A stretch of DNA of 64,000 nucleotides from an uncultured delta proteobacterium (GCA_963697965.1 OY969108.1:1981326-2045325); one strand, 5' to 3'. Shown: positions 3,243 through 64,000, numbered from the stretch's first letter. The notes: a model not told the origin generated them from the sequence alone. Program-made: numbers and translations.

Positions 3243-3626
3243 TTAAGACTCGTTTAATAATGATAACAGTTTTCCGCGTAAACGGCTGGCAATATCAAGG
3301 GCGTGTGCGGCTTCCTCGCGATCGGCCGATTCGCCCGGATAACGGAAGACCACTGCGGCCCGAGTCAAAAAACGCAGATCATCCGAAAGCCAGGACCATT
3401 TCGGACATACTGGAGTCAATAACTGATCGAGAAAGGAGAGATCATGAGTTTTAGTGGGGATAGCTCCCAGGTGGATCAATAAAGCCTTCATCAATTTTTC
3501 GATACATTGCTGGGCATGGAAACAGACGGCATCGTAATTCGGCTGTTCCTTCGCGGCCAGTTCCCTTTTGGCGGTGGCCAAGTCCCTTTCCGCCTTTTCG
3601 ATCCATTCTTTAACGGTGTCGTTCAT
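3243..3626 (-). CDS. HEPN domain protein (toxin-like partner of MNT)
   Basis: 127 aa with an all-helical HEPN-like sequence (CFHAQQCIEKLMKALL...). It overlaps the upstream nucleotidyltransferase gene by 17 nt. Confidence 0.75.
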   Translation of the reverse strand: MNDTVKEWIEKAERDLATAKRELAAKEQPNYDAVCFHAQQCIEKLMKALLIHLGAIPTKTHDLSFLDQLLTPVCPKWSWLSDDLRFLTRAAVVFRYPGESADREEAAHALDIASRLRGKLLSLLNES

Positions 3627-3954
3627 ATAACACTTGGCCGTGGTCTAGAGCTTCCCTAATCAAGGGGTCGCCTTCCCGATAGCGGCGTTGGGTGTCATCG
3701 GGGCGCCGGGCCAGTAGATCAATGGGAAACCGGGGGTTGGTCCGGTTCAAAATTTCCAGGGATTTGCGCAAATTTTTCCCTTCAAAAGGCAGGACCACCA
3801 ATAGGTCGACGTCGGAATCCGGGGTCGGGTTGCCATAGGCATAGGAACCGAAGAGAATGATGCGTTCAGGTTGGAACTCCTGGACGATGAGGTTGCATAA
3901 TTCTTGGATGGTTTGGTTGTCTACCATGGCAGTCTCAACTAGTTGGAGGGACAC
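3610..3954 (-). CDS. minimal nucleotidyltransferase (MNT) domain protein
   Basis: The LFGSYAYGNPTPDSDVDLLVV motif matches the GS-x9-12-D-x-D pol-beta-fold nucleotidyltransferase signature. It is paired with the HEPN gene. Confidence 0.8.
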   Translation of the reverse strand: MSLQLVETAMVDNQTIQELCNLIVQEFQPERIILFGSYAYGNPTPDSDVDLLVVLPFEGKNLRKSLEILNRTNPRFPIDLLARRPDDTQRRYREGDPLIREALDHGQVLYERHR

Positions 3955-4561: not shown

Positions 4562-7840
<3,279 letters not shown>

Positions 7841-20147: not shown

Positions 20148-20205
20148 AAGTTATCATGGTGTATGGCGTCGCGGCCTAGCCCCTGAGGGCAGGCCCAAGC
20201 GCCTT

Positions 20206-20235
20206 GTAGGGGCGGGTTTAAAACCCGCCCCTACG
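20206..20235. repeat. REP hairpin, family C (GTAGGGGCGGGTTTAAAACCCGCCCCTAC)
   Basis: Perfect palindrome. Further copies lie at 25227-25255, 45382-45412 (variant) and 61543-61572. Confidence 0.75.
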
Positions 20236-20307
20236 CGCCTACGAGAAGCCAATCTCTTGGCAAGAGCGAAACCAAGATTTCCGATCAAAATGGGTTCAAG
20301 AAAATCG

Positions 20308-25197: not shown

Positions 25198-25295
25198 CGT
25201 AGGGGCGGACCCAGGTGCCCGCCCTCTAGGGGCGGGTTTTAAACCCGCCCCTACATTTGAGCTTTGCTCTGGTGGCACAGGCTTCCAGCCTGTGC
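25198..25295. repeat. three adjacent REP hairpins at the 3' flank of the RAYT gene
   Basis: cgtaggggcggacccaggtgcccgccctc at 25198-25226. taggggcgggttttaaacccgcccctaca at 25227-25255. ggtggcacaggcttccagcctgtgc at 25271-25295 (family A). Confidence 0.8.
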
Positions 25296-45381: not shown

Positions 45382-45412
45382 CGTAGCGGCGGGTTTTAAA
45401 CCCGCCGCTACG
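45382..45412. repeat. REP hairpin family C variant
   Basis: cgtagcggcgggttttaaacccgccgctacg. Confidence 0.7.
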
Positions 45413-61036: not shown

Positions 61037-61321
61037 GTGAAGATAATTATGAGTTGGAAGATTTTTTGGGTAACTTTCGGAACCATTTTCCTGGCGGAAA
61101 TGGGTGATAAGACTCAGCTTGCAGCTCTGACCTTGGCTGCCGACACCAGGATGCCCCTGTCGGTGCTGGTGGGAGCGTGCGCCGCTTTCTGCCTGGCCAT
61201 TCTCCTGACGATAGTTATCGGGAGCACCGTGAATCATCTGCTCCCCGAGGGGATTCTGAAGAAGCTTGCCGGTACAATATTCATCGTTAGCGGGGGGCTG
61301 ATCCTCTGGGGTAAATTGTGA
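61037..61321 (+). CDS. UPF0016 (GDT1/TMEM165) family single-domain membrane protein
   Basis: E-x-G-D-K-T motif (LAEMGDKTQL) and 3 TM helices. The start is either GTG 61037 or ATG 61049. Confidence 0.8.
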   Translation: MKIIMSWKIFWVTFGTIFLAEMGDKTQLAALTLAADTRMPLSVLVGACAAFCLAILLTIVIGSTVNHLLPEGILKKLAGTIFIVSGGLILWGKL

Positions 61322-61542: not shown

Positions 61543-61572
61543 AGTAGGGGCGGGTTAAAACCCGCCCCTGCG
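61543..61572. repeat. REP hairpin family C
   Basis: agtaggggcgggttaaaacccgcccctgcg. CCCCCTTT..AAAGGGGG-type hairpins lie just upstream at 61430-61510. Confidence 0.7.
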
Positions 61573-61599: not shown

Positions 61600-62997
61600 C
61601 TACATCACCAGGATCTCTTCCAGGCCATCCTTCCAGCCATCCCAGAGAAAGGCGTCCAGCCGCCCCTGGGCGATGACCCGGAAGGCATAGCGAGCCTGGG
61701 ACGCATAAAAGTCGCAATTGGGCGCCGGGGCCTCGAGCCGTCCGTTGATGGCATAGACCTCCGCAGGACAGGGGGCCCCGCAGAAGTGGCGCACCGCGCA
61801 TTGTTTGCAGGGGTCCAACTGCTCCACTACCCGGGTGGTCACCCGTTTGAAGGCCGGGGTGGCCAGCAGCTCGGCGACCGGGGTCTCAAAGAGGTTGCCG
61901 CCGTGGAACTCCGGCAGCCCCAGGAACTCGCTGCACGGGGCCACTTCGCCCGCGGCCCCAACTGCGAAGAAGCAGCGGCCGCCGCCGCAGGGGGAGATGT
62001 CGCACATGAGCCGCCGGGCCCCCGGCGCCACCAGCCCCAGGAGCAGGTTGGCGAAGTTGCCCACCACCAATTTCCGGCCCGTCTGTTCATAGAGCTCGTA
62101 GCTCCGGTCCAGGGCCCGGAAAAAGAAATGGGCCAGTTCCTCCTGGTCCGGCATCAGCGAGCGCCCGCCGCTCTGGGTGCCCCGCACCGGGTTGAGCAGG
62201 ACGTTGGCCGTCCCCCGCTCATGGAAAAACTCTACCAACTCCGGCAGGTGCCGGACATTTTCCTTGGTTACCGTGGTGATCACGTTGAGCCCGGGGTAGT
62301 CGTGCAATTCCTCCAGCACCTTGACGGTGCCGGCGAAGACGCCGCGGCCGCCCCAGGTGTGGCGGCTGCGATCCGCGATCTCGGCGGTAGGCCCGTCCAG
62401 GGAGATGCCGATGCCGGCCCCGTGAGCCACCAGGAAATCCCGGGCGTTTTTGTCCAGCAACACCGCGTTGGTCTGTACGCCGAAGCGAAAATAATCGCCG
62501 TATTGGGCAATGCCCTGAAAGACCGCATCTTTCGCCAGCAGCGGCTCGCTGCCATGAAAAACGAGTTGCGGTCTGGCGCCCTCCGGCAGTTTTTTCTTAA
62601 AGAATTCTGAGAGCACGGAGAGGCCCTCCAGCACTTTGGCCGGCTCCATGTCGCGGCCGGTCCGCCGAGCCTCCCGGGGCAGGTAACAGTAGCCGCAATC
62701 GAGGTTGCAGCGCTCCGTGGGGTTGAAATAGACTGCGGAGGGCAGCAACCCGAAGCGGACATTGTGCAGGTCGGATGCCAACCTGGCCTCTTTTTCCCGG
62801 AATACCTTGGGCAGCTCGCCCCCCAGCAGGTAATCCAGGGCCTCCTCGCGAGGCGAGAGCACCCAAAAGGCGGTGTCCGCGTTAATCAGGGCCACGTAGT
62901 CCGGGTGGCCCACCTCCAGGACGTCGAAATGGGGCCCGGCCCCGGCGTTGACCGTTGCCAGGGACGGGCCCTCGAGGTTTGGGGTTTTGGTCGCCAT
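61600..62997 (-). CDS. radical SAM/SPASM-domain enzyme, putative peptide-modifying maturase
   Basis: 465 aa. A ~90-aa N-terminal extension precedes ERCNLDCGYCY (CxxxCxxC). A GSEPLL-type SAM motif is present. The C-terminal auxiliary-cluster Cys pattern is CDISPCGGG...CSEF...CKQCAVRHFCGAPCPAE...NCDF. Confidence 0.85.
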   Translation of the reverse strand: MATKTPNLEGPSLATVNAGAGPHFDVLEVGHPDYVALINADTAFWVLSPREEALDYLLGGELPKVFREKEARLASDLHNVRFGLLPSAVYFNPTERCNLDCGYCYLPREARRTGRDMEPAKVLEGLSVLSEFFKKKLPEGARPQLVFHGSEPLLAKDAVFQGIAQYGDYFRFGVQTNAVLLDKNARDFLVAHGAGIGISLDGPTAEIADRSRHTWGGRGVFAGTVKVLEELHDYPGLNVITTVTKENVRHLPELVEFFHERGTANVLLNPVRGTQSGGRSLMPDQEELAHFFFRALDRSYELYEQTGRKLVVGNFANLLLGLVAPGARRLMCDISPCGGGRCFFAVGAAGEVAPCSEFLGLPEFHGGNLFETPVAELLATPAFKRVTTRVVEQLDPCKQCAVRHFCGAPCPAEVYAINGRLEAPAPNCDFYASQARYAFRVIAQGRLDAFLWDGWKDGLEEILVM

Positions 62998-63001
62998 AGC
63001 C

Positions 63002-63118
63002 CTACTTGGCCTTTTTGGCGTCCGCCATCAGGTAGTGGGACAGGCCCACCTGATCGCCGTTGGGGGCGCAGGTGTAGCGGATACTGATGGCTTTCTTACA
63101 ACTCGGTTCTTTCTGCAT
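63002..63118 (-). CDS. 38-aa candidate precursor peptide (MQKEPSCKKAISIRYTCAPNGDQVGLSHYLMADAKKAK)
   Basis: The ATG is preceded by GGAAGGAGGA with 9-nt spacing. Its TAG stop lies 4 nt before the radical SAM ATG. The peptide has two Cys residues and Lys-rich termini. It is too short for the 60-aa ORF track except as part of the spurious 112-aa ORF. Confidence 0.5.
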   Translation of the reverse strand: MQKEPSCKKAISIRYTCAPNGDQVGLSHYLMADAKKAK

Positions 63119-63254
63119 ATAGGGGTCCTCCTTCCTCGGTGGTTTACCGGCCAGGCCAGCGCATAAGCGGCCGCCGGGGTGACATCCGTGTAGAACCGCC
63201 GCCCTCGGCGGTTCTGGCGCCGTCGCAGCGCCGGTGCTACATAAAAAAAGAAGT

Positions 63255-63368
63255 GGTGGCACAGGCGCTGCGCCTGTGCTTACGTAGGGTGGGCACCGCC
63301 CACCCATTCCTCTTGAAACAAAAACTGTCCCGCTCTTCATCTTGGGCGACCCAGCGGGTCGCCCCTAC
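63255..63368. repeat. three REP hairpins (families A, B, E) inside the riboswitch-to-ORF leader
   Basis: ggtggcacaggcgctgcgcctgtgc at 63255-63279. cgtagggtgggcaccgcccaccc at 63283-63304. gggcgacccagcgggtcgcccctac at 63344-63368. Confidence 0.75.
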
Positions 63369-63372
63369 CAAA

Positions 63373-63410
63373 ACAAAAAAGGGCGTCCCATCAAGATTGA
63401 TGGAACTCCC
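63373..63410 (-). terminator. intrinsic terminator (riboswitch expression platform)
   Basis: The minus strand reads GGGAGTTCCATCAATCTTGATGGGACGCCC followed by TTTTTTGTTTT. This gives a ~13-bp imperfect stem, a 4-nt loop and a U-tract. Confidence 0.6.
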
Positions 63411-63429
63411 TTTACCATCAGGAGCAATC

Positions 63430-63627
63430 GCTAATCACCACCAGGCAGGTCTTCTGGCTCTGGGATCACCCGAAGAAAGCAGCCTTCCCGCCGGGGTTAG
63501 TGTTGCCTCCCCGTCAGTGGCCGGCGTTAGCCTTGCTTCCTCCGTCCCCCATCACAGCGGCGGGACCGCCCCGGATTCGCACCGGGTTCCGGATTGCCTG
63601 GAAGTTCTTATTGAATGTATGATTAGC
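63430..63627 (-). promoter_or_regulatory. cobalamin (B12) riboswitch aptamer
   Basis: The minus strand carries GGTGCGAATCCGGGGCGGTCCCGCCGCTGTGA, GCCACTG, GGGAAGGC and the B12 box GAGCCAGAAGACCTGCC. It is closed by GCTAATCA/TGATTAGC pairing. The aptamer is about 198 nt long. Confidence 0.85.
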
Positions 63628-63707
63628 ACGCCATTGGGCCTTTGTCAAGACCTGAAGCCGGGAATTGTCAATAAGGACCAGGCCAAACCCAGCGCCTCGG
63701 TAGTGAC

Positions 63708-64000
63708 TCATTTTGAATCCAGGAGAGCCACAATATCCTCAATCTCCCAAAGGCGATCTGTAACCCCTGCTTCCATCGCCGGGGTCACTCTCAGGCTCTT
63801 ATGAATCCGGCAAAAATTTTAATGCATATAGTGAAGGGCTACATGGTGAGCGTGGTTTTCAACCTTCTTTGAAAAACCATTGGTGAGGCGGGTAAACCGG
63901 CGCATGGACATTCTCATGGTGAGGTTCTGCCTCTCCGCATAGCTGGTGGAAATATTCTTGGGGTCGGGGTTGCCGGTCATAGCCTCTTTTCTACTGGCGA
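63708..64000 (-). pseudogene. IS1-family-like transposase C-terminal fragment (runs off the window) with an in-frame TAA
   Basis: The minus-strand frame reads ...YAERQNLTMRMSMRRFTRLTNGFSKKVENHAHHVALHYMH*NFCRIHKSLRVTPAMEAGVTDRLWEIEDIVALLDSK. A TAA at 63821-63819 sits where homologs, as I recall them, have Tyr. The ER.N...R....R.TR....FSK pattern resembles the IS1 InsB C-terminus. Confidence 0.55.

Follow-up and report, generated by a model that had tools for sequence, protein, structure and literature searches.

Why should a peptide of 38 residues and a radical S-adenosylmethionine (SAM) enzyme be placed behind a cobalamin riboswitch, and are they produced when corrinoid is plentiful or when it is scarce? 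The question is raised by a locus on the minus strand of a 64,000-nucleotide stretch of DNA from an uncultured delta proteobacterium (GCA_963697965.1 OY969108.1:1981326-2045325), hereafter called the window, with positions counted from its first letter. We scanned the whole window with Rfam and read the minus strand of 64000-61400 directly, recovering cbpA and cbpB as a two-gene operon behind a corrinoid riboswitch, an intrinsic terminator and a strong ribosome-binding site (RBS), all on the minus strand. The original prediction, made from the sequence, had recognized a peptide and its putative maturase under riboswitch control, and had speculated on a function under corrinoid or cobalt scarcity. 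As a whole, we somewhat favor the explanation that cbpAB is a corrinoid-gated operon which is switched on with corrinoid, and in which CbpB cross-links CbpA for a task in corrinoid handling.

The comparative material was obtained by scanning one genome per species for relatives of CbpB, which are present in at least 518 species genomes. Eighty loci were kept, which together with the window make 81 loci from more than 10 phyla. The groups represented are Desulfobacterota, Planctomycetota, Verrucomicrobiota, Acidobacteriota, Omnitrophota and Nitrospirae, and further Chloroflexi, Actinomycetes, Firmicutes, Bacteroidota, Endomicrobiales and Alphaproteobacteria.

The cbpAB leader contains a cobalamin aptamer

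The RNA ahead of cbpA is a cobalamin riboswitch by covariance score as well as by its core elements, and is predicted to bind a corrinoid. RF00174 aligns over its full model (1-189) at 63670-63427 with 82.9 bits (E 6.5e-19), far over the gathering threshold of 31.5, as the sole Rfam match in the window, and the riboswitch that had been recognized by eye is thereby corroborated. The B12 box AGCCAGAAGACCTGCC is located at 63459-63444, the L5 loop UCCCG (63565-63561) agrees with the UCCCG consensus of PMC10327014, and the GCCACTG, GGGAAGGC and GGTGCGAATCCGG loop elements are all present. The conserved P1 helix consists of CCAGGCA (63599-63593) and TGCCTGG (63447-63441), and the aptamer core of about 160 nt is nearly invariant in nine relatives; many non-canonical pairs occur at the 5' side of the Rfam alignment (63670-63600). 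An 8-bp closing helix, GCTAATCA (63627-63620)/TGATTAGC, which had been proposed to bracket the aptamer, was discarded because it overlaps the -10 hexamer and is not conserved: by our reading of the leader alignment it is complete only in the window, reaches about six of eight pairs in the 93%-identical L001, is absent in the other seven relatives and displays no covariation.

P13 and the terminator share a strand

Downstream of the aptamer, a terminator scan detected the hairpin at 63413-63378, followed by TTTTTTGTTTT, with a fold energy of -21.5 kcal/mol, congruent with the terminator-type expression platform that had been proposed from the hairpin and its U-tract. The terminator is conserved in the nine relatives, with a compensatory change (G-C to A-U in L004) and a variable loop. 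Between the aptamer and the terminator, the leaders of all phyla share GAUGG(U/C/A)AAA followed by GGG, and folding places this motif as the 9-nt loop (L13, core GAUGGNAAA) of a 6-8-bp hairpin, P13, in 52 cbpAB leaders. The stems vary by lineage, from GCUCCU/GGGAGU in the window to GGAAUCC/GGGUUCC, GAAAUCU/GGGUUUC, GGAAUCC/GGAUUCC and GGGUCC/GGGCCC elsewhere. P13 was assessed for covariation using 45 distinct sequences, 500 shuffles and slid controls, in which the 3' partners were moved by 1-3 columns. Standard pairs occupy 81.9% of the P13 cells compared to 66.3% in the shuffles and 22-62% in the slid controls, and 66 double-change cells were counted against 24.4 in the shuffles, with none of the 500 shuffles reaching 66.

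In the window, the 3' strand of P13, GGGAGT (63410-63405), lies within the 5' strand of the terminator, and the two hairpins are hence mutually exclusive. Of 45 terminator-type leaders, 44 show this overlap, with four or more of the first six bases of the P13 3' strand paired in the terminator. The two competitors are unequal, with median energies of -7.7 kcal/mol for P13 and -27.5 kcal/mol for the terminator (about -7 versus -21.5 in the window), the terminator being approximately 3.5 times stronger across the terminator-type leaders. The linker joining P1 to P13 varies, and in the leader alignments there is no further conserved segment able to form a separate antiterminator. One candidate of this kind, pairing the aptamer segment UGAUGGGG with the terminator strand UUCCAUCA, was rejected, as relatives carry UAAUCGGG in the aptamer with the terminator unaltered.

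L13 is a candidate kissing-loop partner of L5, as judged from their complementarity. In the window L13, GAUGGUAAA, holds UGG, able to form three pairs with CCG of L5, one of them a wobble, and covariation of the flanking pair is partial. In an alternative register L5 meets GGG(A/U) within the 3' strand of P13, where covariation with the first L5 base is also partial, with about 27 compatible versus about 12 incompatible pairs after correction of two regular-expression mis-hits (the window and L063). With kissing by L5 in the one register or the other, the bound state would exclude the terminator. An arrangement in which UCCC of L5 contacts GGGA at the terminator base inside a window-specific hairpin, UGATGG/CCATCA, was dismissed in favor of the family-wide P13, since that hairpin is not conserved beyond the clade and covariation is partial.

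An architecture of the activating type

Two characterized riboswitches bear on how such a leader may respond to its ligand. In Priestia megaterium metE and Alkalihalobacillus halodurans cobT, corrinoid promotes an L5-L13 kissing loop that stabilizes P13 (PMC10327014/PMC10653944). The repressing metE switch keeps P13 apart from the terminator, and its antiterminator arises between the two only if P13 is not formed (PMC10327014). The cobT switch is the only validated corrinoid-activated riboswitch, with nearly all of those tested repressing (Procknow et al. 2023, PMC10327014). Its platform reads UGAGG-CAUGGCAUAC-CCUCAGCUU-AUUU-AAGCUGGGG-UUUUUU (Table S1, Procknow et al.), for which we obtained energies of -4.4 kcal/mol for P13 and -13.6 kcal/mol for the terminator. 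Across 38 surveyed riboswitches the distance from P13 to the terminator is annotated as 0-82 nt (PMC10327014), which we read as non-overlapping.

The resemblance of cbpAB to cobT extends over several elements: an NCCCG L5, a short P13 with a 9-10-nt loop, and a stronger terminator built on the P13 3' strand as its own 5' strand. L13 of cobT contains AUGGCA compared to AUGG(U/C/A)A in cbpAB, and its UGGC pairs with L5 as UGG of cbpAB could. The cobT switch moreover sits with a late cobamide-assembly gene, and cobT follows cbpB in several loci. The two differ in the L4 region of the aptamer. The A. halodurans riboswitch prefers cobinamide as ligand, and the window leader has in addition a spacer of about 190 nt with repetitive extragenic palindrome (REP)-like elements and a clade-specific element ahead of the Shine-Dalgarno (SD) sequence, unlike cobT. 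The metE switch has the same aptamer class, the UCCCG L5 and the intrinsic-terminator read-out in common with cbpAB; its L13, however, is CGGGAUA, forming five contiguous kissing pairs, and its P13 and terminator are separate whereas those of cbpAB overlap.

Thus, the window leader conforms to the activating-type rule of PMC10327014, with P13 and the terminator mutually exclusive and no separate antiterminator. As the P13 3' strand doubles as the terminator 5' strand, as in A. halodurans cobT, we consider it somewhat probable, by analogy, that the window riboswitch is ON with corrinoid and that cbpAB is activated. The conserved L13, the UCCCG L5 and the weak P13 fit a ligand-dependent kissing loop shielding P13 from the terminator. 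In the ligand-free state, the weak hairpin P13 (about -7 kcal/mol) would give way to the far stronger terminator (about -21 kcal/mol) and transcription would halt at 63378-63370. With corrinoid bound, L5 (UCCCG) would kiss L13 and lock P13, which would then serve as the antiterminator and turn cbpAB on, through the mechanism described for A. halodurans cobT. The earlier expectation that the genes are off when corrinoid is plentiful, along with the scarcity factor deduced from it, is contradicted by the overlap of P13 and terminator and is probably inverted.

Five alphaproteobacterial leaders (L057, L060, L062, L064 and L073; about 100 nt before cbpA) keep P13 and a second hairpin, without a U-tract. 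The flank of their SD, CAUCGGAG, is complementary to UCCGAUG, made up of the last bases of the P13 5' strand and the first of L13, and in two of the five leaders the fold of lowest energy joins these stretches around the second hairpin. It appears that the same switch has here been moved from transcriptional to translational control.

Three additional cobalamin riboswitches in the loci (L062, L065 and L076) precede other genes, and are without the GAUGGNAAA loop. In L065 (3278-3426, minus strand, and 3532-3698, plus strand, back to back) and L076 (4420-4575, minus strand, and 5562-5713, plus strand), riboswitches are paired within about 1 kb: one precedes cbpAB with the GAUGGNAAA/terminator platform, and the other precedes different genes with a different platform. 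The other riboswitch of L076 lies ahead of a CbiM-like open reading frame (ORF; read by eye) and its platform looks translational. Two platform types coexist in one genome.

CbpA is a conserved peptide

The sole match of the window peptide is TIGR04164 ('modified peptide precursor CbpA', cobo_pep), with E 5.6e-8 and 32.1 bits, 3 bits under the cutoff of 35, positions 2-25 of 25 being aligned to peptide residues 11-36. The shortfall is, we infer, due to a longer Cys-to-Gly spacer in the window's clade (CAPNGDQVG compared to CKAKGTG). By its conserved core and its position, rather than by the score of the hidden Markov model, the window peptide may be assigned as a divergent CbpA member.

All stop-to-stop peptides from the 600 nt ahead of cbpB were searched iteratively with the window peptide, which recovered a CbpA homologue, on the same strand and immediately before cbpB, in 77 of 81 loci (E values of 1e-13 to 1e-21 within this small set). 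Of the four remaining loci, three hold under 250 nt of sequence before cbpB, and L049 lacks a homologue within 6 kb. The peptides are 26-53 residues long and Lys-rich at both ends, surrounding a core of [VI]-I-[AS]-x-R-[KR]-x-C-x(3-6)-G-[TV]-G-L-S-H-Y-[ILV]-[LM]. In the 77 sequences G, L and H are invariant, 74 have S and 75 have Y. A single Cys is conserved, corresponding to Cys17 of the window, where the GLSHY segment spans G25 to Y29 and Cys7 is not conserved. Across the cbpA genes of the window's clade we counted 259 synonymous against 128 non-synonymous codon differences, with a nearly identical core protein. The short ORF therefore stands as a real gene, the conservation in 77 of 81 loci and the dominance of synonymous changes pointing to purifying selection.

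Around the CbpB homologue of L049 (6001-7359; Thermodesulfobacteriaceae, 50% identity) there is no riboswitch, nor a cbpA-like ORF for 6 kb in each direction, and the protein is either an orphan maturase or an enzyme with a different substrate.

The pair is tied to corrinoid metabolism

At the gathering threshold, RF00174 is located directly upstream, on the same strand, in seven of 11 phylogenetically spread loci, and an nhmmer profile built from the Rfam hits places the riboswitch upstream on the same strand in 64 of the 81. The 17 nhmmer-negative loci are also Rfam-negative, three of them simply being without upstream sequence, and Rfam at the gathering threshold on 24 loci returned no other RNA family upstream of riboswitch-less cbpAB.

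Where the riboswitch is missing, cbpAB is in most cases found in long same-strand operons, arranged as cobD/cobQ-cbiB-cobA-cbiA-cbiC-[cbpAB]-cbiMQO-cbiD (L033, L047 and L052; NCBIfam). The upstream neighbors include CobD/CobQ, CbiB, the corrinoid adenosyltransferase CobA, CbiA/CobB and CbiC, and the downstream ones CbiM, CbiQ, an energy-coupling factor (ECF) ATPase and CbiD; the same cobalamin genes precede cbpAB in L040 and L069. In other riboswitch-less loci the pair stands beside BtuF-like/BtuC/ATPase genes, and CobT, CobU, CobS and CobD also adjoin it. In the riboswitch-bearing loci the downstream gene is varied and often on the other strand, the unit there being riboswitch-cbpA-cbpB only. 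Every annotated recurrent neighbor family is a cobalamin synthesis or transport gene, and no peptidase or exporter family recurs among the neighbors of the 81 loci. Since the riboswitch and the placement in cob, cbi and btu operons are two independent kinds of evidence, the pair can be tied to corrinoid metabolism, and the suspected cobalamin link is strongly confirmed by gene context. In our own reading, this tie also explains the model name 'cobopep'.

Extra genes flank cbpAB in the cobS/cobD/btuFCD operon of L035 (3977-4927), L056 (2277-3272 and 4950-6372) and L068 (324-1274 and 2876-5859), from Omnitrophota, Nitrospirae and an unclassified candidate phylum. They encode a protein with an AsnB C-terminal domain (lasso-cyclase-like), a Dph6-like ATP pyrophosphatase and a small MoaA-like radical SAM protein, and may be added peptide-tailoring enzymes.

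CbpB and its likely chemistry

The enzyme scores 617.7 bits, the cutoff being 375, to NCBIfam TIGR04163 (rSAM_cobopep, 'peptide-modifying radical SAM enzyme CbpB'), over residues 25-451 of 465, and the representative of its 90%-identity cluster, differing at two residues, is named 'MAG: peptide-modifying radical SAM enzyme CbpB [Desulfobaccales bacterium]' by NCBI, which assigns the window to a Desulfobaccales genome. The pair, which had not been placed in any characterized pathway, thus belongs to TIGR04163/TIGR04164, with the same gene order and an end-to-end match of CbpB. Pfam Radical_SAM (PF04055) and SPASM (PF13186) are both over threshold, a sub-threshold Flavokinase match (E 0.005) was dismissed as noise, and the Pfam scan returned no B12-binding domain. 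CNLDCGYC supplies C97, C101 and C104, which are invariant in 29 homologues, as are the cysteines of C397-x2-C400-x5-C406-x3-C410, part of a set of nine conserved C-terminal cysteines; by this pattern, the SPASM domain of CbpB is complete and could hold two auxiliary clusters.

An AlphaFold2 model (mean predicted local distance difference test score, pLDDT, 79; predicted template modeling score, pTM, 0.84) places a domain of about 85 residues (pLDDT 65-86) ahead of the barrel, with predicted strands at 24-28, 34-39 and 45-49 and two helices within 50-82. This N-terminal domain is predicted to resemble a peptide-recognition element. The top match in the PDB is the sactipeptide thioether synthase CteB (5WGG, profile E 1.1e-29; 5WHY, Foldseek E 5e-16 with about 460 aligned columns, near full length), and other solved relatives by profile and fold are anSME, then TigE, ChlB, SuiB, SkfB and PqqE. 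The Pfam matches, the predicted strands and helices and the length of the CteB alignment agree with the SPASM enzyme with a recognition-like N-terminal extension that had been proposed.

CteB and its substrate CteA (thermocellin), a representative of the thioether maturases, share with cbpAB the layout of N-terminal domain, radical SAM and SPASM domains as well as a Cys-containing peptide encoded just upstream, although the first approximately 95 residues of CteB fall outside the sequence match and identity to CbpB is 18-20%. Unlike the thioether systems (sactipeptides, ranthipeptides with PapB, and SCIFF peptides with ScfB), CbpA has one conserved Cys, no peptidase or ABC exporter is linked, and the cobalamin link is unique. 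PqqA/PqqD/PqqE and MftA/MftB/MftC are similar to cbpAB in having a tiny Tyr-bearing precursor, a radical SAM/SPASM enzyme with a recognition domain, a product that in cbpAB, too, appears intracellular, and genes located beside the metabolism they serve. In contrast to pyrroloquinoline quinone (PQQ) and mycofactocin, the recognition domain of CbpB is fused and there are no downstream processing enzymes, and CbpB matches PqqE and MftC weakly, with 61 bits to MftC against a cutoff of 265. Of the layout of a ribosomally synthesized and post-translationally modified peptide that had been suggested, the precursor beside a maturase with recognition element stands; a leader peptidase or exporter accompanies the pair in no lineage among the 81 loci.

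CbpA would dock on the N-terminal recognition domain of CbpB, where the SAM cluster and two auxiliary clusters would abstract hydrogen and form one intramolecular cross-link. One link is predicted because a single conserved Cys lies 6-9 residues ahead of the invariant GLSHY, and the likeliest product would be a thioether from this Cys to a residue in GLSHY; a C-C or C-N link with His or Tyr, or a route as in PQQ or mycofactocin, may be the alternative. With no peptidase or exporter linked, the modified peptide would stay intracellular and serve corrinoid handling, i.e. binding, chaperoning, loading or completing of cobamides. A secreted natural product or antibiotic is unlikely.

Weighing the alternatives

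The chief competing explanation concerns the sign: in a conventional repressor, corrinoid would favor the terminator, and cbpAB would be ON at B12 scarcity, its peptide aiding the making or acquisition of B12 or cobalt. We regard this as a real prospect, albeit one that falls clearly short of even, and a number of observations weigh on its side and against activation. Nearly all tested cobalamin riboswitches repress; we read the sign from structure, and the prior favors repression, with one activating example (PMC10327014). Mutants of the S. ovata nikA riboswitch deviated from the model of that study (PMC10327014), and the GAUGGNAAA loop is in none of the 48 sequences of Kennedy et al. 2022 Table S1, so no riboswitch tested there has the cbpAB design. 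The kissing pairs between L5 and L13 cannot be fixed from sequence, given two registers with partial covariation. Riboswitch-less cbpAB, found directly before cbiM in L047, L052 and L033, is placed inside operons for cobalamin synthesis and cobalt/B12 uptake that are classically repressed by B12, where the pair would normally be co-repressed. In the alphaproteobacterial leaders the 3' strand of the second hairpin could pair with the SD flank, yielding repression instead. The family assignments also have their weaker sides, as the window peptide lies below its NCBIfam cutoff and CbpB is under the cutoffs of all characterized maturase families in NCBIfam by 3- to 10-fold; the closest are PapB (112, cutoff 340), DynA (106.7, 450), anSME (106.3, 349) and ScfB (85.6, 425), and the scores for StsB, AmcB and QhpD likewise stay below the cutoffs, so that CbpB shares a superfamily with these enzymes but is of a different family. 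Against repression, no fourth segment was found that could form an antiterminator other than P13, and the linker ahead of P13 is variable. P13 itself covaries, with its 3' strand common to the terminator in nearly all leaders, and being approximately 3.5 times weaker it leaves termination as the default in the absence of a stabilizing ligand. The conserved loop is furthermore hard to account for without a ligand-dependent tertiary contact that stabilizes P13. The placement in cob operons is compatible with either sign, the peptide being made when corrinoids are made or handled.

A separate matter is what becomes of the peptide. PqqA is the precursor of PQQ and MftA that of mycofactocin, and CbpA could likewise be a sacrificial precursor of a small cofactor, with CbpB modifying the His-Tyr region and unlinked housekeeping peptidases releasing a small redox or ligand molecule for use in cobamide metabolism. 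We judge this unlikely, even though the combination of short peptide, radical SAM/SPASM enzyme and recognition domain is as in PQQ and mycofactocin, the product appears intracellular with no linked exporter, Tyr is retained in 75 of 77 peptides beside the invariant His, PqqE and MftC are among the weaker matches of CbpB, and in three candidate-phylum loci AsnB-like and Dph6-like amidating enzymes and a small radical SAM protein flank cbpAB. No peptidase or tailoring enzyme is conserved, the commonest neighbor family being an ABC ATPase in 16 of 81 loci; the top matches are thioether-forming or protein-modifying enzymes (CteB, anSME and PapB-type) and not PqqE, and the conserved Cys would be left unexplained. 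It is far less probable still that the short ORF is a regulatory leader, an upstream ORF or a chance ORF, with the substrate of CbpB encoded elsewhere. The sub-cutoff score of CbpA and the L049 homologue without cbpA within 6 kb speak for such a view, yet the amino-acid sequence, including G-L-x-H and the conserved Cys, is kept across more than 10 phyla while the codons drift, the strong SD is conserved, and cbpA is always on the same strand directly ahead of cbpB, including inside cob operons.

Layout of the locus

The features of the operon are collected in Table 1. Three promoter-like sites were found in the scanned region compared to 0.6 expected, and the TTGACA/AATCAT pair is the sole one upstream of cbpA on the same strand. 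TTGACA is unvarying in an alignment of nine related leaders, with a TAnnnT-like box at equal distance downstream, and the transcript probably starts near 63612. The SD stands 7 nt ahead of the cbpA start codon, a strong SD at this distance being conserved, and the cbpB start codon follows the TAG stop of cbpA by 4 nt.

Table 1. Coordinates of the elements that make up the cbpAB locus of the window
Feature	Position	Strand	Details
Probable sigma-70-type promoter	63619..63648	-	-35 TTGACA 63648-63643, 18-nt spacer, -10 AATCAT 63624-63619
Cobalamin (corrinoid) riboswitch aptamer	63427..63670	-	Rfam RF00174 match
P13 hairpin	63405..63425	-	stem GCTCCT (63425-63420)/GGGAGT (63410-63405), loop L13 GATGGTAAA (63419-63411)
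Intrinsic terminator	63370..63413	-	AAAGGGAGTTCCATCA 63413-63398, loop ATCT, TGATGGGACGCCCTTT 63393-63378, U-tract to 63370
Hypervariable spacer with REP-like palindromes	63181..63369	-	unalignable among nine relatives
Clade-conserved pre-RBS element	63126..63179	-	CCCC 63179-63176, hairpin CGGCGGCCG...GGCCTGGCCGG, GTAAACCAC, SD AAGGAGGA 63133-63126
cbpA, 38-aa precursor-type peptide MQKEPSCKKAISIRYTCAPNGDQVGLSHYLMADAKKAK	63002..63118	-	TIGR04164 match, conservation
cbpB, 465-aa radical SAM/SPASM enzyme	61600..62997	-	TIGR04163, Pfam Radical_SAM and SPASM
REP-like palindrome GGGGCGGGTTTTAACCCGCCCC with TAC, then TTTT	61543..61567	-	33 nt past the cbpB stop

From the end of the riboswitch match to the start of cbpA the distance is about 82-125 nt in most loci and 213-316 nt in the window and its Desulfobaccales relatives, the window having 316 nt. 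The extra DNA sits past the terminator, and in the window consists of about 190 nt with G+C-rich REP-like palindromes beside GTAG/CTAC, in which the promoter scan detected no promoter-like site. Probably this spacer is an insertion specific to the window's clade without a sensing role, which leaves the genes coupled to the switch because the read-out is termination. The block ahead of the RBS, including a GGCC-rich hairpin, is conserved in the clade, and RNAalifold pairs its CCCC with GGAGG of the SD with zero covarying pairs; this modeled pairing could constitute a second, translational layer of control.

Copies of the spacer palindromes lie at further intergenic sites in the window and right behind cbpB, where the copy at the end of the operon probably marks its 3' end. 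REP-like palindromes (e.g. GTAGGGGCGGGTTTAAAACCCGCCCCTAC and GGGCGACCCAGCGGGTCGCCCCTAC) were noted at about 20205-20240, 25202-25251, 28492, 45102, 45386-45408, 55894, 61543-61567, 63193 and 63365. The post-terminator spacers of the relatives hold short tandem repeats and no REP hairpins, namely four copies of TTTTCGG with the complement CCGAAAA in L003 (about 5590-5620 and 5800-5830), three copies of GCCAGTT in L007 (about 2895-2925) and GAAAACA repeats in L002 (about 960-990), and the site after the terminator seems prone to repeat insertion.

Beyond cbpB, an ORF of the GDT1 family (61037-61321) is encoded convergently on the other strand, and neighbors in the window include nrdR and glyA. 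Directly upstream of the cbpAB promoter, a remnant of a transposase gene (63709-63998, minus strand) extends past the edge of the window. Its IS1-type DDE match is weak (22.9 bits, slightly short of the Pfam threshold), an in-frame TAA interrupts it at 63821-63819, with the frame open again down to about 63709, and it is probably a pseudogene.

Significance

The locus is already known as a catalogued CbpA/CbpB member behind a standard cobalamin aptamer. In the open-access full-text literature we found no paper on the product or role of the family, absence there being no proof of absence, and CbpA/CbpB appears to be a database-defined family. New relative to the literature searched are the frequency of the riboswitch among the loci, the cob/cbi/btu placement where it is missing, and the activating-type architecture. 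Extending the analogy with cobT to the family, we propose, with slightly less than even confidence, that the cbpAB leaders are a natural class of corrinoid-activated riboswitches, comprising at least 52 of the 64 riboswitch-bearing loci, and that the CbpA product acts in cobamide handling. The candidate class spans Desulfobacterota, Planctomycetota, Verrucomicrobiota, Omnitrophota, Firmicutes, Alphaproteobacteria and others.

If this is true, the single known activating corrinoid riboswitch would become a widespread natural class, and a source of 'B12-on' switches for biosensors, and the peptide would be expected in corrinoid-replete rather than corrinoid-starved cells. CbpA would then be a corrinoid-responsive intracellular participant, for example a His/Cys-bearing peptide that binds or loads corrinoids, or alternatively the source of a peptide-derived cofactor for late cobamide assembly. 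Cobamide metabolism is regarded as largely mapped, and a radical-SAM-modified peptide of bacteria from 518 or more species, most of them anaerobic, is a candidate for a missing player in it.

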